This document shows positions 41,961-61,519 of a DNA stretch of 64,000 bases, in pieces; the first letter of the stretch is position 1; the number at the start of each line of letters is the position of its first letter. The translations under genes were made by a program, and so were the position numbers. This DNA comes from Giardia intestinalis (taxonomy: Eukaryota). Location of the stretch: assembly GCA_000002435.2 (NCBI GenBank), contig CM018791.1. The stretch is one strand, 5' to 3'. Below the pieces are notes generated by a model, which saw nothing but the letters and a program-made list of their open reading frames with translations, was not told the origin of the DNA and searched no databases.

Positions 41961-43580
41961 TCACGTAGAGACCATAGTAGTGAGCGTAACTGGATTGGTG
42001 GATAGTCCGTGCTTTGTTGTCTTTCTTTTCTTAACAAGTATGATTGCTAGTGTAATGACGGTAGCAGCAAGAAGTAGCACAGCAAGTGGCAACGTGATCG
42101 ATAGAATAAGCGTTGTCCTGTTAGTACTAAGCGGAGGAAAAGCAAAGGGAGAATCAGGATCATTATCCAAACATACCACAGAGGTCTCAGAAGATGATAC
42201 CAGACACTGCTTGCATCCCTTTATACCCTTCAGAGGTCCCGAGATAGTAGAATTATCGCAGCGAATGCAACCATGGACAGAGCTGGTCCAAAAGTATCCT
42301 GGTGCACAAAGATTGCACCCACTAGGCGACGAATCCTCGCAAGAGAGACAACCAGGTGCACACTGACTGCAGTGCACCTCCTCAGAGTCGACTGAAACTT
42401 GCGTGGAGTAGTATCCGTTAGAGCAGAAAGTACATATGTCCGGACTTGATGGACAAGCAAAGCAGCCAGTCATGGTACACTTAATGCACCCGCCGTCACT
42501 AGTCCGATGGTAGCCACACGTACAAGCTCGACAAGTCCCATAGGCGGCAGGATCTATTCGCTCTGCGGCGGCGCATACTAGTTTTCCCGGGGCATATAAT
42601 GAACTATAACACCCTCCTTGATGCAGAAAGTACCCCAGGGCACATTTAAGGCAGAGACCTTTGTCTGTTTGAGCACATGCAGAGATCTGCTGACCTGAAG
42701 TAGAAACGCACCTCCCATCGAGAGGAAAGAAGCCCTGGCTGCACCTAGAGCAATACCTTGCCGATCCCAGGATAGCATGACATTCCACGCACGGTCCTAC
42801 GGCGGCTTCGGCGCACTCTGGAACACAACGACCCATAGTGAGCACGTTAGAATCAGTCCTATATATGAAATATCCGTCAACACAGGAGGTACACTGATCT
42901 TCGATTGCTCGTTCACAAGAGTAACAATTTGCTGGACAGAGATCGCATGTATTTGTGATAGGATTTGCTGCATAGCCGATGGGGCAGCTGTGCAAACATA
43001 TTCTGCGTGCCGGCTGTAGAAAGTATCTTTTCTCACACAAAACGCAAGTGGCTCCAGAATCAGTTCCGTTGTTCTCGCAAACACAATTTGCTGGACAACC
43101 GCCCACTTCTAGACAGTTCCTCCCATCTAGGGAAAGACCAAATGGTATTTCGCACGCGTTGCAAATGTCAGCGTTATCGGTGCAAAGAGCGCAGCTGCTG
43201 ACCTTGCAAAGGATACACCCTTGTGCTCTGTTGCCTTGGTCTAGTCCATATCCAGCGATGCACGTACACTGTCTAGTATAGTAATTGGACGATGCACCGA
43301 TTCCACAGGAGGCCACGCACGATCTTCCATTAATGCTAACCATATAATCATACTCAGAACAATCTAGACATACAGGGGCTGTATCAGTGGAAGAGGGTAA
43401 CATGCAGCGAGAGCATCCTCTTATACCAGCGTATCCATGAACTGGCACTTCAGTACTACAAGAGATACAATATCCCCTGTCATTACCTTGAACTGCCAAG
43501 AAAGACGTACTATTGCACGACGTACATGAGGCATCGTCTTGACCATCACACGTAGTACAGGATTGGTGGCACGACGACAT
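41961..43580 (-). CDS. High-cysteine membrane protein (HCMP-like; ~11% Cys, CXXC/CXC motifs, single C-terminal TM, short basic cytoplasmic tail)
   Basis: 539 aa from the first ATG, with dozens of CXXC/CXC spacings. A hydrophobic TM segment (LILSITLPLAVLLLAATVITLAIILV) is followed by a KKRKTTKHG... tail rather than the VSP CRGKA tail. No N-terminal signal peptide is visible. The track ORF starts at a TTG. Confidence 0.85.
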   Translation of the reverse strand: MSSCHQSCTTCDGQDDASCTSCNSTSFLAVQGNDRGYCISCSTEVPVHGYAGIRGCSRCMLPSSTDTAPVCLDCSEYDYMVSINGRSCVASCGIGASSNYYTRQCTCIAGYGLDQGNRAQGCILCKVSSCALCTDNADICNACEIPFGLSLDGRNCLEVGGCPANCVCENNGTDSGATCVLCEKRYFLQPARRICLHSCPIGYAANPITNTCDLCPANCYSCERAIEDQCTSCVDGYFIYRTDSNVLTMGRCVPECAEAAVGPCVECHAILGSARYCSRCSQGFFPLDGRCVSTSGQQISACAQTDKGLCLKCALGYFLHQGGCYSSLYAPGKLVCAAAERIDPAAYGTCRACTCGYHRTSDGGCIKCTMTGCFACPSSPDICTFCSNGYYSTQVSVDSEEVHCSQCAPGCLSCEDSSPSGCNLCAPGYFWTSSVHGCIRCDNSTISGPLKGIKGCKQCLVSSSETSVVCLDNDPDSPFAFPPLSTNRTTLILSITLPLAVLLLAATVITLAIILVKKRKTTKHGLSTNPVTLTTMVST

Positions 43581-43914
43581 GTTAAAGTAGGCTCTCGAGA
43601 CCAAATTACTAGGTAGCCGTATCCTAAGAAATTAAAAGCTGATTGTTACGTAGAATTGTGTACATTAACATCAAGTAGCTGCATTGTATTACTGTAGCAT
43701 TGGTGAGAACATCTCTTGGATTTTTAGCGCTGCAGAGAAGGCCCGGGATCTGGTTGGTAAGATAACCTTTGTCCAGTGCAGTAGAAATGTCTTATTCATC
43801 AAAACACTGTGGTCGCGAGGAAGGTCTTGGTCAGTACAGATGCTCACTTTGTGCAACATAATCAAGAACCCGATTCAGTTTACAGTTGGACGAGAGCAAA
43901 TAAAAACTCCTAAT

Positions 43915-44472
43915 TTACTTGCAGCACCCGCCGCCCAGGCAGCAGAGCGCCGCGGCGTACATGGCTGTGAAGACTACCACATCGACGAGCCCGAGGACCA
44001 CGCCCGCCCACTTGTTGGAGGGGCCCTCAAGAAGGCCGCGGGGGCCCGCCGGGACGATGGCCGCGATGACGACGAAGGCGACGATGCAGCCCAGAATGAG
44101 CCCGAGGAACTTCAGCCCGCAGCTGTCCTTGTGGATGAAGAACGAGCCGATGACCACGGTGAAGGCCCAGCCGGCCGCGAGGGAGACCATCGACAGCCCG
44201 CTGTAGCCGCCCACGGTGTTGCTGAACGACTTATCGTTACCATTGTTCCCGTTCTTCGCCAGCACGGAGGTGATCAGGTACGTGAGGAAGTCCGCGAGCG
44301 AGGGGTACCCGACCCCGACCCCGATGCGGAACGCGTACTTGAGGAAGCAGTCGAGGCACCCGCAGCACCCGCAGCAGCAGCAGCTGCAGCAGCAGAGGAC
44401 GCACTTGAGGATCTGGACGACGATGCTGTAGATGATGCAGATCACGGCCACAATCATTATGAAGAGGAAGAG
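43915..44472. repeat. Left arm of a 558-bp inverted repeat (pairs with 46093..46650)
   Basis: The reverse complement matches the right arm with a single difference (GGG vs GGA Gly codon). The match ends exactly at the TAA stop. Confidence 0.9.
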
Positions 44473-44676
44473 CTTGCCCTCATTTTTATCAGTAAGACAC
44501 TGTATGGGATTTTTCCCATTACTGTTTCCCTTACTACCATTACTATCGAAACACGTTTTCAGCGTTTCTCCAATTGTTTTAGGATTTCTCCCCGGAAACC
44601 CTACAATCAGAGCATAAACAATCATCGGAACGCCCACACAGATGAGGGCAATGACGTCCTCATCGCAGCAGCACAT
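43915..44676 (-). CDS. Cysteine-string multi-pass membrane protein, paralogue A (253 aa)
   Basis: Real ATG after GGAATTTAAA. MCCCDED N-terminus, poly-Cys string CCCSCCCCGCCGC after TM2, C-terminal CCLGGGCCK, and 4-5 predicted TM helices. The 3' 558 nt are nearly identical to 46093..46650 on the opposite strand. Confidence 0.75.
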   Translation of the reverse strand: MCCCDEDVIALICVGVPMIVYALIVGFPGRNPKTIGETLKTCFDSNGSKGNSNGKNPIQCLTDKNEGKLFLFIMIVAVICIIYSIVVQILKCVLCCCSCCCCGCCGCLDCFLKYAFRIGVGVGYPSLADFLTYLITSVLAKNGNNGNDKSFSNTVGGYSGLSMVSLAAGWAFTVVIGSFFIHKDSCGLKFLGLILGCIVAFVVIAAIVPAGPRGLLEGPSNKWAGVVLGLVDVVVFTAMYAAALCCLGGGCCK

Positions 44677-45126
44677 TTTAAATTCCTTCGAACAAACCGA
44701 GTAAATAGATTTTGACGTATTGACGGTGTAAGGAACTTATGCAGATGCTTGTCTAATGGCACGTGTCCACAACTAGATTCAATATAGTCAGCTATATTTT
44801 CAAGTTTAGCGGCAACCCTTAAAAAACTATGCATGTAAACAAATTACACCAACAATCATAAATACTCGGATGGCTTCAGTGGTCCCGGGGGGCAAGAGGT
44901 AAGGCATTGATACAGACTGTTTCGTTGCTAGTGTACGATGCGACGAGCGTGATATAACAAACGTACACCTGGATCTAAGAGGCCTGAATCTCTCCGTCTA
45001 ATCGCACTCTTTGAACATAGATTTTCCTCCAGACACTTAAGTTTTCGCTTTGAAACGGACAGGTCTGCATTCAGCTGCTGATGTCGAAGTGTGGTGTGTT
45101 GCAGGGCACTCTCCTGCCGTCAAGCC

Positions 45127-45543
45127 TCACCCTCCACTTTTCCAGTTAGCTGTCCATCCCAAGTCTGATTTCGGAAAGTATACCTTGTTGCAGTACCTCA
45201 GAGCTGTTTGCAGTAAACCTTTTGCTGAATTGGGGTCACGGCTTTCGAACTGTGGAACCAGTCTTTCATCTGCGAGGGTCTGCTGAGGGCTGCGCCCCGG
45301 CTGTTCTGCGCACGCTCCCCTGCGGAGGCGGTGGCCGGGGGCGCACCGGTGGCAGTACTCCGGGACGGCGCAGACCGCGCAGTGCTCGACGGCGCAGGGC
45401 CCGGGGGTGCACGCCCGCCCGCCGTCTGCAGGGACCAGCTCGCCCTGGCAGCGCAGGCAGGCGGCGCCCGCGCACCGCTCGCAGCCGGGGACCGTCACCC
45501 CGCAGGGCAGGGCCGCGAGGAGGCGGAGGAGGCGTCCGGGCAT
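45127..45543 (-). CDS. Small secreted Cys-rich (CXXC) protein or VSP/HCMP-like N-terminal fragment (138 aa from MPGRLL)
   Basis: Signal-peptide-like MPGRLLRLLAALPCGVTVPG followed by four CXXC motifs (CERC, CLRC, CAVC, CHRC) within 60 aa. The 5' two-thirds are extremely GC-rich. It may be a pseudogene remnant. Confidence 0.3.
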   Translation of the reverse strand: MPGRLLRLLAALPCGVTVPGCERCAGAACLRCQGELVPADGGRACTPGPCAVEHCAVCAVPEYCHRCAPGHRLRRGACAEQPGRSPQQTLADERLVPQFESRDPNSAKGLLQTALRYCNKVYFPKSDLGWTANWKSGG

Positions 45544-45830
45544 CGGCGTGTTTTCGGCCAAAAATCTGGCGATGTCTACGGCGCCCGCGACCTGGGACAC
45601 GCACTGGGCGCGCCACTGGCGCCTGGCCTGGGACTACGTCCTCGGGGCCGCCGTGGCAGGGCTCCTCCTGGTGTGCGGGGTGCGCTCCCCGGGCCAGGCA
45701 GGGGACCCGGACCCCCGGCGCAGCCCCCGCAGCCCCCGGCGCCGCAGCTCCTTCGAGGGCCGGGCTCCCCCGCGCCGGCGGGAGACGAGCGACCCCGACG
45801 TCGACTGCTCCGACTAGCCCGGGGCACGCG
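45290..45830. other. GC-rich island (visually >70% GC) in the spacer between the inverted paralogues
   Basis: Dense GC-rich codons give spurious open frames on both strands and in several frames (ORFs 45222..45845, 45266..45868, 45331..45840, 45407..45817, 45576..45827). Flanking DNA is about 45-50% GC. Confidence 0.7.
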
Positions 45831-45900
45831 AATCCCATAAAGTGAACGTCAACGCTTTTCCGGCACAATCACCGGGTAGTTTATTGATGGAGAAAAATAA

Positions 45901-46650
45901 ATGTGCTGCTGCGACGAGGACATCATCGCCCTCATCTGCGTGGGCATCCCGATGATCGCGTACGCGGTGGTAGTCGGCTTTCCGGGGAGAGACCCCAGCA
46001 AGGTTGGAGCGGCATTGAAAGAGTGTCTCAGTAACAAAAATGGTAAGAATCTTCTGGCCTGCATCAGTGAGAAGGGGGATAACTACGGCGGCCTCTTCCT
46101 CTTCATAATGATTGTGGCCGTGATCTGCATCATCTACAGCATCGTCGTCCAGATCCTCAAGTGCGTCCTCTGCTGCTGCAGCTGCTGCTGCTGCGGGTGC
46201 TGCGGGTGCCTCGACTGCTTCCTCAAGTACGCGTTCCGCATCGGGGTCGGAGTCGGGTACCCCTCGCTCGCGGACTTCCTCACGTACCTGATCACCTCCG
46301 TGCTGGCGAAGAACGGGAACAATGGTAACGATAAGTCGTTCAGCAACACCGTGGGCGGCTACAGCGGGCTGTCGATGGTCTCCCTCGCGGCCGGCTGGGC
46401 CTTCACCGTGGTCATCGGCTCGTTCTTCATCCACAAGGACAGCTGCGGGCTGAAGTTCCTCGGGCTCATTCTGGGCTGCATCGTCGCCTTCGTCGTCATC
46501 GCGGCCATCGTCCCGGCGGGCCCCCGCGGCCTTCTTGAGGGCCCCTCCAACAAGTGGGCGGGCGTGGTCCTCGGGCTCGTCGATGTGGTAGTCTTCACAG
46601 CCATGTACGCCGCGGCGCTCTGCTGCCTGGGCGGCGGGTGCTGCAAGTAA
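45901..46650 (+). CDS. Cysteine-string multi-pass membrane protein, paralogue B (249 aa)
   Basis: Real ATG after GAGAAAAATAA. The domain layout matches paralogue A. The N-terminal ~65 aa diverged (MCCCDEDIIALICVGIPMIAYAVVVGFPGRDPSKVGAALKECL...), and the remainder is identical. Confidence 0.75.
   Translation: MCCCDEDIIALICVGIPMIAYAVVVGFPGRDPSKVGAALKECLSNKNGKNLLACISEKGDNYGGLFLFIMIVAVICIIYSIVVQILKCVLCCCSCCCCGCCGCLDCFLKYAFRIGVGVGYPSLADFLTYLITSVLAKNGNNGNDKSFSNTVGGYSGLSMVSLAAGWAFTVVIGSFFIHKDSCGLKFLGLILGCIVAFVVIAAIVPAGPRGLLEGPSNKWAGVVLGLVDVVVFTAMYAAALCCLGGGCCK
46093..46650. repeat. Right arm of the 558-bp inverted repeat
   Basis: See left arm. The arms are separated by about 1.6 kb (44473-46092), which holds both divergent 5' gene ends and the GC island. 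Confidence 0.9.
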
Positions 46651-46662
46651 ACGGCGCCCGGC

Positions 46663-48183
46663 CTACTGCTCGGTCTCCTCGTAGATCGTGATCTCGGAGC
46701 AGTCTGCGCACCGGAGCCCGCTGTCCTCCGAGACGGGGACCTGGAAGATCACCCTGCAGAAGCGCATGAACCGGTTTGCGTACGCGTCGCTCGGGACCGC
46801 GGAGATCCCGTCCTTGTCTGCGCACAGCCCCTTCGCCCTGCGCTCGACGTGCTTGATGCTCCTGAACTCGGTGAGGAAGTCGACGACGCCCATGTGGAGG
46901 ACCCGGTAGTAGAGGGCCGACCCCCGCAGCGTGGGCCCCAGGGCGCAGGCGGGGGAGAACGCGTAGAGCCCGCCCTCCTCGCTGTGGAAGATGTCGCTGC
47001 TCTGGATGGCCGCCTCGAACGTGAAGCGGCGCCGGAAGACCTCCCGGAGGTACTCGTCGGGGGGCAGCGCGGCGAGGAACGCGGACGTCCCCCGGCTCCC
47101 CCCGGCCGCGATGCTGTGGCCCACCGGGGGCAGCATGTCCGAGACGTCCCGCGTGCTGAGGATGGTTCTCGGGGAGCTGGCAGCAAGAAGGCGGTCGTAG
47201 AAGCGCTGCACAGGGGTCTTGGCATCTTCGCTGTGGACTTTATCGGCTTCGATAGTGTTGTTGGTTGGCGTGCCCGGGGCCGCTGCGGGATCATCGTCAC
47301 GCTCTCTGTCCTGAATACACGGGATATCGTCCGTGAGACCCAAGAGTAGGCTGTAGTCTATCAGGTTGTGCTGCTTGAGCCAATCTGAGTCTGCCTTGAG
47401 CTGATGGATCAGGAGCCGCCGCCGGAGGGTTGTGAGGTAAATGTAGTTCTCCATATTTGTGTCCTTCAAGGTCTTTTTGGCCCGATCATCAGGAGCATGC
47501 AGCTTTGTGTGCCGGCCAACCCAGGAGCCCTTCAGGTCATACCGCTCAACTATCTTTCGAGGAGTGGCGAAAAGGTTTGGTATGATAATAAAATGCTTAC
47601 CATGCTTGGAGGTCCTATGTGGCGCTGAAGAAGTGCCGGGCTTACCGGTAGTGATAGTGAACATTGCGTAGATCCGGATGAGAAGTGAGCTAGGGTTATC
47701 TAGAAGGTGCCGCCCGTATGATGCGCAGATCTTTAGCATGAGAACAAGCTCCTTGGGCTTTAGTTGCTTAATAAGATACTTACCAGACTCGCTGAAAATA
47801 AAGAATGTGGGGCTTTTACCGGGCGACTTCATTAGCCCAGGGTGGCTGCATGTGACAAACTCTTTTAGCAGCGACTGAGGATTGAGGGAATCTTTTGTCA
47901 TTAGCGTTCTAAACATAGACGCATGATAGAAGATGGCAGTCAAATCGCTTCCAAGTGGCGCACTGGTGTTGGGATCCACCTCACTGCCGGGTAAAGCCAA
48001 TACTGTCATAAGGCCTTCTGTCTCGGAGCTGTATGGGTTCTCACCAGTCTGAGTTTGAGTTTCAATAACTTTTCCAATAGCCTGTTGCACGCGCCGTACA
48101 TGTGGATAGAGCGAACTCTGAACAGTCAGTTGCTCGCCAGAATATGGCCGTTGGTCATACTCCAACTTCCCCAACAGAACCAT
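46663..48183 (-). CDS. Phosphatidylinositol phosphate kinase (PIPK/PIP5K-domain) protein (506 aa)
   Basis: Real ATG after GATGATTAAAAA. PIPK core motifs are present: GKSPTFFIFSESGKYLIKQLKPKE (G-loop/substrate region), IDYSLLLGL (catalytic-loop region) and LHMGVVDFLTEFRSIKHVERRAKGL (activation-loop/C-terminal signature). The 3' ~640 nt are markedly GC-rich. Confidence 0.85.
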   Translation of the reverse strand: MVLLGKLEYDQRPYSGEQLTVQSSLYPHVRRVQQAIGKVIETQTQTGENPYSSETEGLMTVLALPGSEVDPNTSAPLGSDLTAIFYHASMFRTLMTKDSLNPQSLLKEFVTCSHPGLMKSPGKSPTFFIFSESGKYLIKQLKPKELVLMLKICASYGRHLLDNPSSLLIRIYAMFTITTGKPGTSSAPHRTSKHGKHFIIIPNLFATPRKIVERYDLKGSWVGRHTKLHAPDDRAKKTLKDTNMENYIYLTTLRRRLLIHQLKADSDWLKQHNLIDYSLLLGLTDDIPCIQDRERDDDPAAAPGTPTNNTIEADKVHSEDAKTPVQRFYDRLLAASSPRTILSTRDVSDMLPPVGHSIAAGGSRGTSAFLAALPPDEYLREVFRRRFTFEAAIQSSDIFHSEEGGLYAFSPACALGPTLRGSALYYRVLHMGVVDFLTEFRSIKHVERRAKGLCADKDGISAVPSDAYANRFMRFCRVIFQVPVSEDSGLRCADCSEITIYEETEQ

Positions 48184-48313
48184 TTTTTAATCATCCTCCG
48201 ACGCTTTTCCTTTCGATCGGATGCCAATATTATCCTATTTACTAAGATAGTACGAGCCATGAGAGGTATAGTGGCTGCGAATCCTATATATGTAAATAGA
48301 AAATAAAGAACTA

Positions 48314-48673
48314 ATGAGCACAGGACATAACGAGAAAGAGCACTCAATCACAGTAGACCTTCACGAGGAAATAGAAAACTTCATGAACAATGTGATCTCC
48401 CTAGAGGTGGAGCTTGCCTCCCACATTCGAGGACTGGATCTCATGTCTCACCAGCTAAACAAGATCATTGACAATCTCACTGGGTGTAAGACGCAGGAAG
48501 CAGAGTATGACAGTGACACCACAGATAATGGAGAGCCCCCGCGTCCCAAATACTCCATGGAAGGATTTGAGAAGCGTGTACAAGAGGTGATGGAAGAAAT
48601 AAATAAAGACGCCGTTGCGCTAAGGCATCTGCGTGAAGAAGCCATCCAAATCCGTGAGAATTGCTTGGCGTAA
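48314..48673 (+). CDS. Small coiled-coil hypothetical protein (119 aa)
   Basis: Real ATG with a strongly AT-rich leader (tatatatgtaaatagaaaataaagaactaATG). Acidic helical protein. Its stop is 7 nt from the convergent BBS9-like stop. Confidence 0.45.
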   Translation: MSTGHNEKEHSITVDLHEEIENFMNNVISLEVELASHIRGLDLMSHQLNKIIDNLTGCKTQEAEYDSDTTDNGEPPRPKYSMEGFEKRVQEVMEEINKDAVALRHLREEAIQIRENCLA

Positions 48674-48680
48674 GGATGCT

Positions 48681-51605
48681 CTATGCAAATCTGGCTAAAA
48701 GGCTGCGGGTTCCTAATCGAAGTTGATCTGGTGTTGGACAGTTGGCAAAGTCATATGTGCGTGGACTGGATACCGAATCGTCATCTTGTTTGGAATAATA
48801 TGTAATAAAGTAGTACAAGTGTGATGGGTGTTCGAACTCTGTCAGGCATTGGTGCAGCTGCTCAAAGCCCTCCTCCGTGGGCTCTCCTCTCATCAAGAAG
48901 CAAATACCTATAATACCTACAACTACGTTCATGCCCGCCCTTAGCTTTTGTAGCAGATGCTGATGGTTAGCAGACAGCTGTTGCGCATCACGAAGCTGCA
49001 GCTCGTAGTAGGACAAGAGAGCATCAACCTTCTCTCCTACATTCGTACACCGTGTAGCCGACAGGACGCTCTGACCCTGATTGAAGGTAGCCTGAGTAAG
49101 AAACCCAATACTTCCCAAAATGGACTGGTAGGAGAATTGAGAGTACTTAGGCAAGAGCTTAGTGAAGTCCACATCAAATGGCTGCGTGCCAAATGGAATC
49201 CGTGGAATGACTTCCGTGACAAGTTGCAGGACATCAGCAACAAGTTCCGAGGTTACACCCAAGCGTAGGTTGAGCTTCTCCAAGGCGTTGCTCAGCTCCA
49301 CACATTGGCCGTAGATATCCAGGAGTTTGTCAAGTATTAGCTCTTCGCTATAGTCTATACCCGTAATTTGGAAGAAGCTCTTGTATCCCAGAAGAAACTC
49401 TATCCCAAGGGGTAGTATTTCCAGAGCAGTTGCCGTAATGTGAAGCTGCATGTCCTGGAAAGAAACAACTACCTGGCCGTGGACTCCTGCAATTATGCAC
49501 ACAGCATTCGGCGACTTCTTCCCCACCTCAGAGAGGATAGATGCAGAGAAGGGCCGCTTAAGTAGGAGCTCATGAAGGGTAGAAAAAGACTCCTTAGGGC
49601 TTATCTTTAAAGAGACCCTTAAGGGTAGATCGGTGGCTTTCGGAAAAACAGAGCTCTCACGAACTAGAGCACTCGAAAACAATGGAAGGGATAGGCTGCG
49701 CGTTACAACAAAGGGTACTGACAGAAGACAGTCCTCTGACGGGATCTTTACATTGGCACAGATGGAAAGATGCAGAGATGGTGAGACAAAGAAGGAAAGA
49801 TCGGAGATCCCTAGCTTGATGTAGACAGTAGCCGGTGCTCCGCTGCCAAGATGCACTATTGTACTTGTTATTGATCTGAAGCATTCTCTATCCCCAAGTT
49901 GAATAAAAGAAGACGGTGGGCCTGCTAGTGGTGCATGGATATCTTTGTTATCAGAGGAAAGAAAAGAGGGATACTCTGCAAGGGACGATAGGTCGGTGAT
50001 GGGCTCCTCATAGCTTCCGCAGCCAGTAACTCCGAGCGTTGCCGAAGGCAATCGACCAGATACAGCTTTAAGTGTTAGTTCTATTATGGTGTAATTTGTG
50101 TTGCCATCCCGATAAAACTTACTGATGCCGCAGTTAACAGTAATGAGCTCATCCAAGCCTGTGCGCATGCTCGCATGCTGGGCTTTTAAAGCGCTTACTC
50201 GCTTCTGGGCTTCCTCCATCAAGGTCTTCGTTACAGCTTGTTTCGGGATAGCAATAGGTGAGAGAAGAGAAGGAAGCAAACTACTGGGTCTTCCATCAAC
50301 GTCCAAGGGGTTGGTCCCAAGGAGGTGAACCTGTATAGATCCACTGCGGGACTGGACCACAAACAAGCCATCCTGGCTACACATCTTTGGAGGACTACGA
50401 GGTACAAACAATTGGGCCATGTATTGCGGAGTATGAACGCCCACAGGCTCGTCGATGCTATCCGATAGCCTAGACGTCCATCTAAGTTCACCTCCGCGGA
50501 AGAAGTGAAGTGTCCTATTGGAGTCTAAGACAACAATTGACGAAATCTCAGGCAAATTGATCCTTCTCTGCCGAATCGGCTGGGAGGTGGACTCCTTTTC
50601 CTTGACTGGAGCTCTGAATAAGGCCATGCTGAATAAGAGCCCATCTGGGAGCTGATTTTCCACGGAAAGCAATCCTGTAGATGCGTTGACAAGTGTTATA
50701 CCGTGTGTGTGCAGAGCGATGACCTCGCCTTCCAGTCCTGAGTCTACTCCGAAGCAGCGGCCGTAGGAAAGTTGCTGAATCCGCTCACCAATGACATAAG
50801 TCCATTGTGGCTTCAGCGGAGAAGAGCGGACGTCCTTGCTTGATTGTGGCACACCGCGCAAAAGGGGGTTTCCCTCATCATTAAATGTACTTGCAGGTCC
50901 AGTTGCATCATGCTCGGTACTACTATTCCATGCTTCACCTCCAGTATCATTCATAACATCTGCACAGGAAAAAGATACAATCGTGTAATCAAACGTGGCT
51001 ATGACCAATGAGTTAGTCCCCGGGCAAAAGGCCATCGGAGTAGGGAAACTGTACATAAGTCCTAGACGGTGGGTGGCCATCACTCTACGGGCACAGATGT
51101 GTAGTATGCCATCGTCTGTCCTTACTGCAAGCCTACTATGATAGAGGGCAGCGCCGGCCTCAGTACTAGGACTTGGCAAGGTGATGACACATGTGGAAAT
51201 TATGTACCTGCTAAAGTGCACCGTACTCACCAGCTCTAAGCCTATATCGCCGTCTTGCAATCTTTTAGGAGTGTAGATACCAATCGAGTGGGGATGAACT
51301 ACCGCCAACTCCAAATTTTCGGGCTTGCTGGCCGCCTCGTCAATGAGCGGGGATGGACCAGTGAAGAAGCCCAACTCAAGGCCCAGAATGGGGTTTTCTG
51401 TCTCGCTAGAAAATACTGTGTTCGTGAGAGTCTCGGACTCGTTACTCTCAGTCCGCAGCACCGTGAGCCGCCCCGCCAGGGATCCGACGACAATCTGAGC
51501 CGAGTTGTTCTTGGCGCGCATCAGATTAAGGACTGCCACTGCCCTAGCATCCACACGCTCCTCCAAGGCGTGAGACCAGCAGGGAACCGTTGAAAAGAGA
51601 GACAT
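48681..51605 (-). CDS. BBS9/PTHB1-like protein (BBSome subunit; N-terminal beta-propeller + helical C-terminus), 974 aa
   Basis: Real ATG. The N-terminus MSLFS...W....NSAQIVVGSLAGRLTVL...NPILGLELGFFTG...LAVVHPHSIGIY parallels human PTHB1 MSLFKARDWW...NGQDKIIVGSFMGYLRIF...DPILQVEVGKFVSG...LAVLHSRKLCVY. The comparison is from memory, and the length matches. A CDS is certain; the family assignment is moderately confident. Confidence 0.6.
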   Translation of the reverse strand: MSLFSTVPCWSHALEERVDARAVAVLNLMRAKNNSAQIVVGSLAGRLTVLRTESNESETLTNTVFSSETENPILGLELGFFTGPSPLIDEAASKPENLELAVVHPHSIGIYTPKRLQDGDIGLELVSTVHFSRYIISTCVITLPSPSTEAGAALYHSRLAVRTDDGILHICARRVMATHRLGLMYSFPTPMAFCPGTNSLVIATFDYTIVSFSCADVMNDTGGEAWNSSTEHDATGPASTFNDEGNPLLRGVPQSSKDVRSSPLKPQWTYVIGERIQQLSYGRCFGVDSGLEGEVIALHTHGITLVNASTGLLSVENQLPDGLLFSMALFRAPVKEKESTSQPIRQRRINLPEISSIVVLDSNRTLHFFRGGELRWTSRLSDSIDEPVGVHTPQYMAQLFVPRSPPKMCSQDGLFVVQSRSGSIQVHLLGTNPLDVDGRPSSLLPSLLSPIAIPKQAVTKTLMEEAQKRVSALKAQHASMRTGLDELITVNCGISKFYRDGNTNYTIIELTLKAVSGRLPSATLGVTGCGSYEEPITDLSSLAEYPSFLSSDNKDIHAPLAGPPSSFIQLGDRECFRSITSTIVHLGSGAPATVYIKLGISDLSFFVSPSLHLSICANVKIPSEDCLLSVPFVVTRSLSLPLFSSALVRESSVFPKATDLPLRVSLKISPKESFSTLHELLLKRPFSASILSEVGKKSPNAVCIIAGVHGQVVVSFQDMQLHITATALEILPLGIEFLLGYKSFFQITGIDYSEELILDKLLDIYGQCVELSNALEKLNLRLGVTSELVADVLQLVTEVIPRIPFGTQPFDVDFTKLLPKYSQFSYQSILGSIGFLTQATFNQGQSVLSATRCTNVGEKVDALLSYYELQLRDAQQLSANHQHLLQKLRAGMNVVVGIIGICFLMRGEPTEEGFEQLHQCLTEFEHPSHLYYFITYYSKQDDDSVSSPRTYDFANCPTPDQLRLGTRSLLARFA

Positions 51606-58255: not shown

Positions 58256-61200
58256 CTACAGGACAGATCTTGCTGCATGCTCTTCAAGAGGAATAGAATC
58301 CTGGGGTTGCATCTTCATATAGTTACTTGTTGGGCCCATTCTCTTGGCCTTCAATAAGAAAACAATCAGAGTAACGATCCCAGCGACTAGTACTACAGAA
58401 ACAACAGTAAGAGCTATGGTGATGCCGCTCATCACTTTATGCGTGGAGTACAGCTGCCTTACAGGGACAAACAAAGCGTCAGGGCTGACACACATCCCCG
58501 TCCCCGTAGAAACATAAGGTATGTCGCATATTGCGTCTCCAGGTCCAATGCAGATACCGTTCATCAGATTAGTGCATCCCACACGGCACGCCTCGGCGTG
58601 CTTGTACGATGTCTGGTCACAAGCACACGTAAAGACATAGTTGTCTAGCTGTGTACATATCCCGTTCCTATTACAATTGGAACCGCAGAAGCTTTCGCTA
58701 CAAGAACTGCCATAGAGTCCAAGACCACACTCGCACGAGCCCGTACTAACATCGCATCTTCCACCGGAGCCACAGTCTCCATTGATGGTGCACTGAAATG
58801 TGCTGCAGAATGCGCCTGAGTATCCTGGGCTACAATTGAATTGTCCTGGCGTCACATACACCTGCCCTCCCCCTAGGCTTTTGAAGGACTTCAGATGGGG
58901 GCAATGATTAAACGTGTCATCACTGTTGGCCCAGACCTTATCATAATTCCATCGCCTTTCCTTCGTCGCTCCCAAAGCACTGGGCTTCCTTAGATTGTCA
59001 ACAAAACCCTCTTTTGAAGGGTTACTTAGTGTTGGCAGATTTCGAAGATATGGGTAACCAGTCGTGTCATGACCAAAGATGCTATCATCAGCAAAGTTGA
59101 TTCCGTCATAGGTGGCACTATTCTGCATAGCATCGGCCCCGACACAGTGCAGCTGGCTTCCAAACTTGGCATTGAAATCGGCATTTGCGGTCGGTTCCCC
59201 ACAATTATCAGTGTTTGCCGTGTTCAGGTAGTAAACCTGACCCGCCATCGCTGCATTTATGTTGCTTACGTTCAGGCCACCGAAGGCTTTGGGTTGACCC
59301 TGACTCGTTAATCCTATGAAGCTCACATTGACTATCACCCTCCTGACCACTCCATCGTGCAGATAACCAATGACTGACCCAAGGTTTTTGGGCACAAAAC
59401 CGCTTATGCTTATCGGCTTTGTTTGATATGCAATAGAGTTGCTCACCGTACTTCCTAGGTGCAGGCTACCAACAATACCGCCAATACCGCCATCCAGTTC
59501 AGGAGAAGTTGCTGTCGTGTCTGAATACTCCATTGTTGTTTCGCCCACTCTTGCCCAACAGTCGTCAATAGCCCCAAGAGAGGAGACCAACCCACCGATA
59601 GTTCCCACGTGCGGTTGGACTTTAGTGCTGTTTATTTTCATCTTCATTGCCTTTACATCAGCAAAGCTGTCGCTAAGCTTTCCTGTCATAGTGAGCATGG
59701 AAAGACCTCCCAGCAGTGCAAGACGATTGCCCTCTATGCTATTGGCAGCGTCGACGGTGATGTTGATTGATTCGGCTCTTCCGTAGCACCGGTCGATGAA
59801 ACTATTACGATAAACTTCAGCTACAAACGATGCTCCTCCAGTAAGCGTGTCATCTGGAGCCTGGGTCTCATCATAGCCTGGATAGAGGGTTCTGAGGAAA
59901 GATGCCTTGACTTCCAGTGCTGTGTTGACGACGGCAAAGGAATCCTGGATGGTGCTTCTGTAGCGTAAGCTTCCTCCATACCCGGCAGCAGTTGAAAAAG
60001 CATACCCGCTACTGATAACCTTGTTCGTAACAGCATACGTGTTGCTTATCTGCAAGTACTCTGCATAGCCAACAAAGCCTGCAGATATGCTTGATTTCCA
60101 GGAAGTAGCTTTGTCCTCTCCGGATTCGGAGGAGTATATCACATCGCCATGAGCTGCACAGAGATAGATGGCGCCAGAATGGACGTGCTCATTTTCGGTG
60201 CGTGAAAGAAAGCCTGCAGCAATCCCATAGAGGCCTCCCGTTGCATTGACAAGCTTTGTGACAGCGGCTGAATTTTTAACGACGATAGAGGAATTCTGCC
60301 TGTGGAAAATCCCAATGAAACCGCCACAATATGAAACGCAGTTATCAGAAATGCACACAACTGACTCTGGATATGCATAGCATTCGTCGACATCGGCCGA
60401 GACACGCCCCGCAAATCCTCCCCCAGCAGTCTCCGGTCCCACGGAGACAGTCGGTGGTAGAGGTTGGTCTTGCGTATGGAGATGCACATTGCCAACGGAG
60501 GTGCAGTTGCGGATGGAGGATAACGACCATCCGACAAACCCGCCAGCAGTAATGTCACCAGCCGCTGTGACCCGAATGGTAGCGTTAGTCCAGGACGAAG
60601 AAGACATAGATGTACCACGAGTCAGATACCCGGCAGCACCACCAACGGTGGATATTCCAGTGACCTTCATGTTTGGAATAACAGCTCTGCTATGCTGAAT
60701 TGCACCGCATATCCCAGCAATTCCGCCCACAACAAGGTCGAGTTCATAGCTGAACCCTGTTGTTGCAGCACTACCCGTTCTGGTGACAGTAAGCTCAGCT
60801 GGATAGGACTCCGAACGTTGGACTGTACCCGTCGAATTGCCAACTATACCTCCCACAGTGAATCTAGCCGGGCCTGTAACTTTCAAGCTTCCTGTAGCAT
60901 GCACCGCAGACAGCGCAGCGTGTTCTACAAGGCCGACACCCATTCCAACATTCAAGCGAACTGTGTCACTTCCAGCAGTGGTAACCGTCATCTGGAGCTT
61001 TACCAGAATGTCTGAAGCAGGTTCCACTCCAGTTAGATATCCGAGCACGCCCCCAATGGAAATGGTCTCCGCAGGCGGGACGCTTAAAGAAGATGTAATG
61101 GACAGGGTCCCCTCTACCACAACCTGGCTGAAGTAAGAGTCGGTTGCAGTGGCAGCAAGGAGCCCAAAGTAGATGAAGCTGCCTTTAACCTCGGTGTTGG

Positions 61201-61519
61201 CGCGAATCTTGAGGTTGACGATCTTTGACTGGTTGAGATGCTTGAAGATACCGCCGTACCCGTCACTAAAGGTAAAGGAGGACACAGTGATCGTCTTTCC
61301 ACGACCATTGAGGGTCCCTGTGAATAGGGAAACGGGTTCCCAGTTCTCCGAAAGGGTGACGTCCGAACCTAGCTCCACAGCACAACAGGGACAGTCTGCA
61401 AGAGCTTTCAGCCCAGCCTCATCAGTAATAGTCAGTTGACGCGGAACGCATCCCAACGCACTGGCCAGCAGGAGGAGTATCACTCCTTTAAACATTTTTG
61501 TGGACAATGGGGTCAACAT
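58256..61519 (-). CDS. Type I membrane/secreted surface protein with GG[IVF][AV]G-repeat (beta-helix-like) ectodomain, EGF-like Cys modules and one C-terminal TM
   Basis: Signal peptide (MLTPLSTKMFKGVILLLLASALGC). About 12 spaced GGxxG motifs (VGGIAG, AGGFVG, GGFAG, GGFIG, TIGGLVS, GGIGGIVG). C-terminal EGF-like Cys spacing (CSPGYSGAFCSTFQCTINGDCGSGGRCDVSTGSCECGLGLYGSSC...). TM helix ITIALTVVSVVLVAGIVTLIVFLL plus a short tail. The track ORF starts at GTG. The first ATG (61519) is the more likely start, but a second ATG at 61495 is also plausible. Confidence 0.8.
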   Translation of the reverse strand: MLTPLSTKMFKGVILLLLASALGCVPRQLTITDEAGLKALADCPCCAVELGSDVTLSENWEPVSLFTGTLNGRGKTITVSSFTFSDGYGGIFKHLNQSKIVNLKIRANTEVKGSFIYFGLLAATATDSYFSQVVVEGTLSITSSLSVPPAETISIGGVLGYLTGVEPASDILVKLQMTVTTAGSDTVRLNVGMGVGLVEHAALSAVHATGSLKVTGPARFTVGGIVGNSTGTVQRSESYPAELTVTRTGSAATTGFSYELDLVVGGIAGICGAIQHSRAVIPNMKVTGISTVGGAAGYLTRGTSMSSSSWTNATIRVTAAGDITAGGFVGWSLSSIRNCTSVGNVHLHTQDQPLPPTVSVGPETAGGGFAGRVSADVDECYAYPESVVCISDNCVSYCGGFIGIFHRQNSSIVVKNSAAVTKLVNATGGLYGIAAGFLSRTENEHVHSGAIYLCAAHGDVIYSSESGEDKATSWKSSISAGFVGYAEYLQISNTYAVTNKVISSGYAFSTAAGYGGSLRYRSTIQDSFAVVNTALEVKASFLRTLYPGYDETQAPDDTLTGGASFVAEVYRNSFIDRCYGRAESINITVDAANSIEGNRLALLGGLSMLTMTGKLSDSFADVKAMKMKINSTKVQPHVGTIGGLVSSLGAIDDCWARVGETTMEYSDTTATSPELDGGIGGIVGSLHLGSTVSNSIAYQTKPISISGFVPKNLGSVIGYLHDGVVRRVIVNVSFIGLTSQGQPKAFGGLNVSNINAAMAGQVYYLNTANTDNCGEPTANADFNAKFGSQLHCVGADAMQNSATYDGINFADDSIFGHDTTGYPYLRNLPTLSNPSKEGFVDNLRKPSALGATKERRWNYDKVWANSDDTFNHCPHLKSFKSLGGGQVYVTPGQFNCSPGYSGAFCSTFQCTINGDCGSGGRCDVSTGSCECGLGLYGSSCSESFCGSNCNRNGICTQLDNYVFTCACDQTSYKHAEACRVGCTNLMNGICIGPGDAICDIPYVSTGTGMCVSPDALFVPVRQLYSTHKVMSGITIALTVVSVVLVAGIVTLIVFLLKAKRMGPTSNYMKMQPQDSIPLEEHAARSVL

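Follow-up and report, generated by a model that had tools for sequence, protein, structure and literature searches.

What kind of membrane protein carries a dozen cysteines in a string beside one of its helices, and what the cysteines might be for, is the question raised by a locus on contig CM018791.1 of Giardia intestinalis (assembly GCA_000002435.2), which we analysed within a stretch of 64,000 nucleotides (the window). The locus holds two inverted genes, one on each strand, whose products each carry several clusters of cysteine next to predicted transmembrane (TM) helices. An earlier note made from the DNA letters had described them as an unrecognised pair of small polytopic proteins, likely to be palmitoylated. 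Our analysis indicates that they belong to a genuine, apparently Giardia-restricted six-TM family with unusually many candidate acylation sites. The main features of the pair are as follows.

45901-46650, plus strand: gene for a cysteine-string membrane protein of 249 residues (open reading frame (ORF) list, exact WB match, AlphaFold, dN/dS)
43915-44676, minus strand: inverted paralogue, 253 residues (ORF list, exact WB match)
45901-45921, plus strand: N-terminal MCCCDED, with three cysteines directly before TM1 (sequence)
46162-46218, plus strand: juxtamembrane cysteine string CVLCCCSCCCCGCCGCLDC, residues 88-106, with 12 cysteines between TM2 and TM3 (sequence, AlphaFold)
44347-44403, minus strand: cysteine string of the paralogue, identical in DNA to that of the plus-strand copy (sequence)
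46621-46647, plus strand: C-terminal tail CCLGGGCCK, directly after TM6 (sequence)

Two inverted genes encode cysteine-rich membrane proteins

The plus-strand product is an exact match to XP_001710016.1 (A8B2P4, KAE8303017.1) of Giardia intestinalis ATCC 50803 (WB), and the minus-strand product to XP_001710015.1 (A8B2P2, KAE8303016.1) of the same isolate. The diplomonad origin guessed at in the earlier note is correct. The genes are already in the databases as hypothetical or TM-domain proteins, with 'Transmembrane domain-containing protein' as the only annotation of A8B2P4 and A8B2P2, and the family is uncharacterised. Two further WB paralogues, A8B2H2 (248 residues) and A8B2H5 (264 residues), lie outside the window. 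Each product of the pair is best explained as an integral membrane protein of ~27 kDa. The MCCCDED start, the string after the second hydrophobic helix and the CCLGGGCCK end are common to both copies; from residue ~69 onwards the minus-strand product is identical to the plus-strand one, and the sequence of loop 1 differs. The ORFs and their sequence bear out the earlier description of two paralogues of ~250 residues with an N-terminal CCC and a C-terminal CC..GGGCCK. The densest run had been credited with 11 cysteines in 13 residues; CCCSCCCCGCCGC contains 10, and with its flanks the string has 12 in 19 residues. The whole plus-strand product contains 25 cysteines.

The family is found in Giardia and matches no known family

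A word-indexed search returned 21 close homologues with 53-98% identity, and all those that carry a name belong to Giardia duodenalis assemblages A, B and E. When 1.84 billion representatives were searched exhaustively with an HMMER profile, 17 proteins were found, several of them from Logan assemblies; all matches whose source is named come from Giardia (G. muris TNJ26955, TNJ27868 and GMRT_12506; WB GL50803_12830; and GL50581_921). The segment and conservation counts given below are based on an alignment of 24 family members that includes remote homologues (alignment A2), and a word search with the profile of this alignment, limited to 8000 candidates, added two G. muris-like proteins. The family consists of several subfamilies, including one of 264 residues (A8B2H5). 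A G. muris homologue with 36% overall identity retains the cysteine string, and A8BA73 (GL50803_12830) is a distant WB paralogue, ~28% identical. We could identify the family only in Giardia, and among the named matches it is lineage-specific, as the earlier note had expected.

Comparison with known families was negative throughout, in keeping with the original view that the protein is unrecognised and has no J-domain, tetraspanin, claudin or MARVEL signal. No Pfam family reached its cut-off in any of the 24 members, and none matched more than three of them at E <= 1. The DnaJ family (J-domain, PF00226) gave no match at E <= 1 in the 24 members, nor did MARVEL (PF01284) match any of them, the nearest signal being CASP_dom at E = 0.76 in a single member. 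The protein does not have the four TM helices of the tetraspanins (PF00335), nor their large second extracellular loop with the CCG motif. The claudin/PMP22/EMP family (PF00822) likewise gave no Pfam match, and loop 1 is a two-cysteine helical hairpin without the W-GLW motif. A sequence-profile search of the PDB found no significant match, so that neither Pfam nor the PDB yielded a confident profile match to a known family. When the segment of TM2 and the string was compared with the PDB, the only resemblance was to the TM helix and cysteine-rich endodomain of coronavirus spike (E ~0.3-1, not significant); this resemblance is compositional, and is of use as an analogy.

GenBank and UniProt call the orthologue in assemblage B (P0007; ESU41458.1, KWX12253.1; L004 8001-8744) 'Cell division protein kinase 2', evidently an annotation error, as the protein lacks a kinase domain. 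In that isolate the gene adjoins a VSP gene, near the orthologue of the window ORF at 58256-61519.

A conserved six-helix core is predicted

An AlphaFold prediction from close homologues only gave a poor model (pLDDT, the predicted local distance difference test score, of 58), and with the remote homologues of the 24-member alignment added the pLDDT rose to 86.4 with a predicted TM-score (pTM) of 0.84. The helices of this model span residues 6-26, 32-44, 51-58, 62-91, 102-138, 142-153, 155-177, 182-206 and 215-240. The architecture that it makes most likely has six TM helices (TM1, 6-26; TM2, 62-91; TM3, 102-138; TM4, 155-177; TM5, 182-206; TM6, 215-240) and a small helical hairpin in the TM1-TM2 loop, formed by ecto-helices within residues 32-58. 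The four to five TM helices proposed earlier are therefore replaced by six and a small helical ecto-loop; the placement of the string after TM2 agrees with both sequence and model. The string itself is modelled as a disordered connector, with pLDDT below 50 at residues 95-98. A fold search of the PDB with the confident model found no match, and the predicted fold, without a counterpart among solved structures, is a candidate for a new membrane-protein fold. An internal duplication of three plus three helices was tested with hhalign, which returned a probability of 2%.

Three residues, R30, D125 and W166, are invariant in all subfamilies of the alignment, and G117, Y154 and G192 are nearly so. 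A six-helix core with the three invariant residues and a two-cysteine loop 1 is found in A8B2P4, A8B2H5, GL50803_12830 and G. muris TNJ26955. TM3 and TM4 are rich in glycine, serine and threonine. Because the residues that are invariant across the family are not cysteines, these data suggest that the cysteine clusters are superimposed on a conserved core.

Cysteines cluster on one face of the predicted topology

The distribution of cysteine over the segments of the 24 proteins is strongly uneven. The mean number is 1.6 in the N-terminus, 1.96 in the TM1-TM2 loop (exactly two in 22 of the 24), 7.25 in the TM2-TM3 loop, 0.08 in the TM3-TM4 loop, 1.33 in the TM4-TM5 turn, 0.08 in the TM5-TM6 loop and 3.46 in the C-terminal tail. 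All clusters abut the ends of helices and fall on one common face of the six-TM topology. Most members have cysteine at the N-terminus; the length and pattern of the string vary, from 0 to 12 cysteines in the TM2-TM3 loop with at least two in 22 of the 24, and one distant member, P0053, is entirely without strings. The strings are kept across assemblages, in the 264-residue subfamily and in G. muris, and their codons are mixed TGT and TGC in the AT-richer paralogues, with many TGT in the 264-residue subfamily. This conservation and codon mixture point to maintenance at the protein level, and exclude chance or a mere (TGC)n microsatellite as the origin of the strings.

The variable number and spacing of the cysteines suggest selection for many cysteines at the membrane interface rather than for a fixed geometry, which fits S-acylation better than metal clusters. 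A reading in which the clusters are thiolate ligands for zinc, copper or iron, in the manner of metallothionein, or have a redox role as a thiol buffer, perhaps linked to the passage of ions through the core, has to be weighed here, as one residue in ten is cysteine (25 of 249). Giardia lacks glutathione and is cysteine-dependent, and its cysteine-rich surface proteins bind zinc and iron; the invariant D125, close to or within the membrane, could form an ion path together with R30 and W166. We nevertheless judge this reading unlikely: three to four cysteines in a row where a TM helix ends are characteristic of S-acylation sites, whereas metal clusters show a conserved geometry with CXC or CXXC spacing; spacing and number vary freely among the homologues here, and the string offers no histidine or aspartate partners.

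The face on which the clusters lie can be approached through loop 1, where a cysteine pair sits in a helical hairpin, as is usual for a disulfide that faces away from the cytosol. From the conservation of this pair we infer that the clusters lie on the cytosolic face.

Multiple S-acylation as the favoured model

On these grounds we propose a protein of six TM helices with both termini in the cytosol (N-in/C-in), whose two-helix TM1-TM2 loop would be extracellular or lumenal and probably stapled by one conserved disulfide. Four interface segments would face the cytosol, namely MCCC, the 12-cysteine string, the TM4-TM5 turn (C182) and CCLGGGCCK, together presenting ~20 cysteines, and these may be S-acylated (palmitoylated) by the DHHC acyltransferases of Giardia. 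The acyl chains would fix the loops in the inner leaflet and cause the protein to partition into membrane that is ordered and raft-like, where it could act as a microdomain scaffold or sorting component. By analogy with characterised systems, we consider multiple S-acylation of the ~20 juxtamembrane cysteines probable by a modest measure; a role as microdomain scaffold or in trafficking is offered as a hypothesis, with less confidence than the acylation itself.

The parasite has the means for such modification. Nine DHHC proteins are present in Giardia (PMC4109852), its VSPs are palmitoylated on a cysteine that directly follows the TM helix, in the CRGKA tail (PMC6115752, PMC4109852), and HCNCp is palmitoylated as well (PMC6115752). 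The palmitoyl proteome of Giardia was undefined as of 2014 (PMC4109852), and our literature searches found none of later date. Table S1 of PMC9445159 lists A8BA73, the distant paralogue, with spectral values of 17.2, 13.1 and 19.8 for its three samples of lipid rafts, and with 0 for every sample of large or small vesicles.

Several observations weigh against the model. The positive-inside rule lends the proposed orientation no support: the loops placed outside hold no less lysine and arginine than those placed inside (loop 1 by itself has a mean of 5.4), and an N-out arrangement is the one that charge would favour, given the acidic DED of the N-terminus and the basic R30 and K34 that come after TM1. 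The raft signal of A8BA73 in PMC9445159 is of low abundance, belongs to a paralogue that is only ~28% identical, and comes from a fraction that also holds many cytosolic proteins; the accessions A8B2P4 and A8B2P2 are absent from the portions of its supplementary tables examined. The non-cysteine invariants and the Gly/Ser-rich TM3 and TM4 hint at a function of the core, for example in transport, that is separate from the cysteines.

The charges bear directly on the opposite, N-out topology, in which the clusters would be outside or in the lumen and would form intermolecular disulfides or a thiol-rich patch, as in other cysteine-rich surface proteins of Giardia. The acidic N-terminus, the basic residues after TM1, the lysine- and arginine-rich loops 1, 3 and 5, and a High Cysteine Membrane Protein gene next to the pair all speak for it. 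Regular intramolecular disulfides are, however, impossible for contiguous CCC and CCCC runs, and the strictly conserved loop-1 pair, a signature of the oxidising side, would come to lie in the cytosol. To our knowledge, every characterised juxtamembrane poly-cysteine cluster is cytosolic and S-acylated. We therefore hold the N-out topology to be quite improbable, more so than the metal or thiol reading.

The hint from the core leads to a different account, that the primary function resides in the six helices, as a small transporter, a channel or a lipid-handling protein, and that the strings, acylated or not, tune localisation or stability. It draws on the same invariant and near-invariant positions, none of them a cysteine, on the composition of TM3 and TM4, and on the existence of the string-free P0053. 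The absence of an internal 3+3 repeat and of transporter family signatures counts against it, and it is compatible with S-acylation of the clusters and not exclusive of it. As the primary explanation it seems to us a minority possibility, if a less distant one than the two preceding alternatives.

The open reading frames are genes under purifying selection

The ratio of nonsynonymous to synonymous substitution rates (dN/dS; Nei-Gojobori) is 0.08-0.15 in all sufficiently diverged comparisons, which were made against the assemblage B gene and the 264-residue subfamily; for the plus-strand copy the values are 0.11-0.13. The two ORFs are functional genes under purifying selection. Their flanks carry the following short elements.

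45889-45900, plus strand: A-rich initiator-like sequence GGAGAAAAATAA abutting the ATG of the plus-strand copy (sequence comparison)
44677-44687, minus strand: A/T-rich initiator-like sequence GGAATTTAAA abutting the ATG of the minus-strand copy (sequence comparison)
46646-46651, plus strand: AGTAAA, a match to AGTRAA that overlaps the last lysine codon and the stop codon (sequence)
43914-43919, minus strand: AGTAAA, match to the polyadenylation signal, of the minus-strand copy (sequence)

Short A/T-rich initiators abut the start codons of Giardia genes, and the consensus of the Giardia polyadenylation signal is AGTRAA; judged from their sequence, the stretches that abut the start codons of the pair and the hexamers at their stop codons resemble these signals. 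An initiator-like sequence of the GGAGAAAAATAA type also lies upstream of the 264-residue paralogue in WB and in the Giardia isolate DHA2, and the assemblage B gene has AATTTAAA at the position equivalent to the initiator-like sequence of the minus-strand copy. The start context is GAGAAAAATAA-ATG or AATTTAAA-ATG in all copies that could be read, and AGTAAA or AGTGAA, made up of the last lysine codon, the stop codon and the next base, occurs in six of six copies inspected.

It could be argued that the ORFs are non-functional, either duplicates in decay or a by-product of high GC content and scarce stop codons: long ORFs occur in all six frames of this GC island, and expression data for the two genes were not found in the proteome tables and contigs searched. 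A dN/dS of about 0.1, intact orthologues in assemblages A1, A2, B and E and in G. muris, persistence of the ORF in AT-rich paralogues (GC content at third codon positions (GC3) 0.31-0.56), conserved start and poly(A) signals and a confident AlphaFold model derived from family co-variation make this extremely improbable, and the conservation data effectively refute it. In the other searches for expression, a second extracellular-vesicle proteome supplement gave no hits, and a literature search by UniProt and RefSeq accessions and by GL50803_12830 found no paper text. Short Logan contigs considered as possible transcripts were examined for poly(A) tails and proved to be genomic, ending at the repeat.

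The GC-rich codons belong to a regional GC island

The strong GC bias of codon usage noticed earlier is real, with a GC3 of 0.89 in the plus-strand and 0.81 in the minus-strand copy against 0.42-0.64 in most other genes of the window, but as a property of the gene it does not stand, being regional and absent from other paralogues. Elsewhere in the family GC3 is 0.56 (WB 264-residue paralogue), 0.64 (assemblage B gene) and 0.31 (a Giardia-like homologue). In the minus-strand copy it is 0.94 within the converted 558 nt only and 0.44 in the gene's own 5' 204 nt. The PIP5K gene that is convergent with the plus-strand copy (46663-48183, minus strand) becomes steadily richer in GC3 along its length, with 0.44 near the 5' end and 1.00 in the last ~150 codons. 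The GC content of the whole window is 49.6%, and a sharp island of 57-78% GC at 45200-47300 takes in part of the spacer, the plus-strand cysteine-string gene and the 3' third of PIP5K. The codon bias says nothing certain about expression. Rather than a codon bias linked to expression, the pattern suggests a hotspot of recombination or GC-biased gene conversion, and the latter, in a recombining locus, would be a reasonable candidate explanation of the GC-rich codons.

The spacer between the two genes is divided in the same way.

44677-45900, no strand: spacer between the divergent genes, with an AT-richer part beside the minus-strand gene and a 71-78% GC island (~45200-45870) beside the plus-strand gene

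It reaches 77% GC. An Rfam scan of 43000-49000 gave nothing at the gathering score, leaving the GC island without a known RNA family. Between WB and DHA2 the spacer has changed far less in its GC-rich half than in its AT-richer half: ~500 nt of the former (45330-45830) show four substitutions and an in-frame indel of 24 nt, and ~290 nt of the latter (44750-45040) show 23 substitutions. The most protein-like ORF of the GC-rich part, at 45127-45543 (minus strand), with a signal-peptide-like start and four CXXC motifs, is not supported as a gene and has no homologue in 5.8 billion proteins.

The pair is homogenised by gene conversion at a rearranging locus

The two genes form the arms of an inverted repeat.

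46093-46651, no strand: right arm, 559 nt, the 3' 558 nt of the plus-strand gene and 1 nt past its stop
43914-44472, no strand: left arm, the 3' part of the minus-strand gene (sequence comparison)

Over the 3' 558 nt the WB copies differ by a single synonymous mismatch (46251, A versus G), whereas their 5' ~200 nt differ at 61 positions and by gaps. The 3' region differs between WB and DHA2 by 8-14 substitutions and an indel, and between the two DHA2 copies by 13. The near-identity within WB, set against the larger divergence from DHA2, points to recent gene conversion in WB, in a tract that by sequence ends 1 nt after the stop codon. The idea of a conversion-maintained pair is thereby supported.

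The order of genes in DHA2 (L001, AHGT01000002.1) is a 264-residue gene (minus), a fragment encoding the C-terminal 157 residues of PIP5K (plus), a 248-residue gene (minus), the spacer, a 252-residue gene (plus) and PIP5K (minus). Positions 3538-6760 of L001 align in reverse to window positions 47164 to 43914 with 96% identity, and the unit between the arms, made up of both 5' gene ends and the spacer, runs the other way round in DHA2 when the PIP5K flank is taken as reference. A crossover between the inverted arms would be expected to produce such a flip. The repeat is longer in DHA2 (1284 nt, 93.6% identity) and includes the PIP5K fragment. At L001 4052-4798 (minus strand) lies an intact 248-residue family gene of the DHA2 assembly that has no gene call among those listed for the locus; it appears to be an unannotated fourth DHA2 copy.

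In WB, a cluster ~35 genes away consists of a 248-residue gene, a PIP5K fragment (GL50803_112368) and a 264-residue gene. With fragments surviving in both WB (GL50803_112368) and DHA2 (ESU39537), ~500 nt from the 3' end of PIP5K were evidently part of the inverted duplication from the start. The left neighbour of the pair in the window is the High Cysteine Membrane Protein gene (41961-43580, minus strand). A family copy lies beside this gene in both WB and DHA2, with the cluster of 264-residue gene and PIP5K fragment at the opposite end, which suggests an inversion of ~35 genes between WB and DHA2 with breakpoints in the family genes, as read from accession order only (WB KAE8302978-79 and KAE8303015-18; DHA2 ESU39500-01 and ESU39536-39).

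The WB 264-residue paralogue contains, at L002 765-835 (Logan SRR19788705), a GC-rich patch of ~70 nt (GGGTGCTGCGGGTGCCTCGACTGCTTCCTCAAGTACGCGTTCCGCATCGGGGTCGG...) that is near-identical to the window genes within an otherwise AT-codon-rich gene. From its sequence it looks like a short gene-conversion tract between subfamilies.

Implications for membrane organisation in Giardia

In Giardia, an intestinal parasite of major importance, the endomembrane system is reduced, and the way in which specialised membrane domains are built up is poorly understood. One-sided clusters of ~20 cysteines single the family out as a clear candidate, and one that is easy to test, for a major S-acylation substrate and raft component. 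The proteins might in time provide a handle with which to tag ordered membrane domains and, having no human homologue, could serve as a parasite-specific marker or target; these are prospects and not results, and the mechanism behind them is drawn by analogy. At its furthest, the model would describe a new, Giardia-specific six-helix fold in which ~20 acyl chains on each 27-kDa molecule nucleate raft-like domains at the plasma membrane or the peripheral endocytic compartments, and in which the gene copies act as recombination substrates that flip and homogenise the locus. We regard this full version as speculative and rather doubtful; if true, the proteins would be among the most heavily S-acylated polytopic proteins known.

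Comparison with known systems

A close parallel to the string is that of the cysteine-string protein CSPalpha (DNAJC5), where a similarly dense membrane-proximal run (14 cysteines in CSP, 12 here) is multiply palmitoylated, holds the protein stably at the membrane and mediates its sorting. CSP is a J-domain co-chaperone, soluble but for its lipid anchor, whereas the Giardia protein has six TM helices, no J-domain and three further cysteine clusters; two TM helices and a loop precede its string where CSP has the J-domain, and there is no sequence relationship between the two.

In coronavirus spike a TM helix is followed at once by ~10 cysteines in ~20 residues on the cytosolic side, an arrangement like the one proposed for the Giardia protein. 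The spike cluster is a documented site of multiple S-acylation and promotes ordered lipid domains. The similarity extends over 35 residues, is compositional and falls short of significance, and spike is a single-pass viral fusion protein.

Within Giardia itself, the tails of the VSPs and of HCNCp (CRGKA, CRRSKAV) resemble the C-terminus of the pair (...CCLGGGCCK) in having cysteine directly after the last TM helix and a basic residue at the C-terminus. The VSPs are single-pass type I proteins with a large CXXC-rich ectodomain and one acylated cysteine; the six-TM protein, by contrast, has no CXXC ectodomain and ~20 candidate sites.

Tetraspanins, claudin/PMP22 and MARVEL proteins are likewise small and polytopic; they carry palmitoylated juxtamembrane cysteines and organise microdomains, and so offer a functional analogy for the role proposed here. 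They have four TM helices and extracellular motifs (CCG or W-GLW-C-C), whereas the Giardia protein, with six TM helices, has a short ecto-loop that holds one cysteine pair, and gave no significant Pfam match and no fold match. The family is not a member of the CSP, tetraspanin, claudin or MARVEL families.

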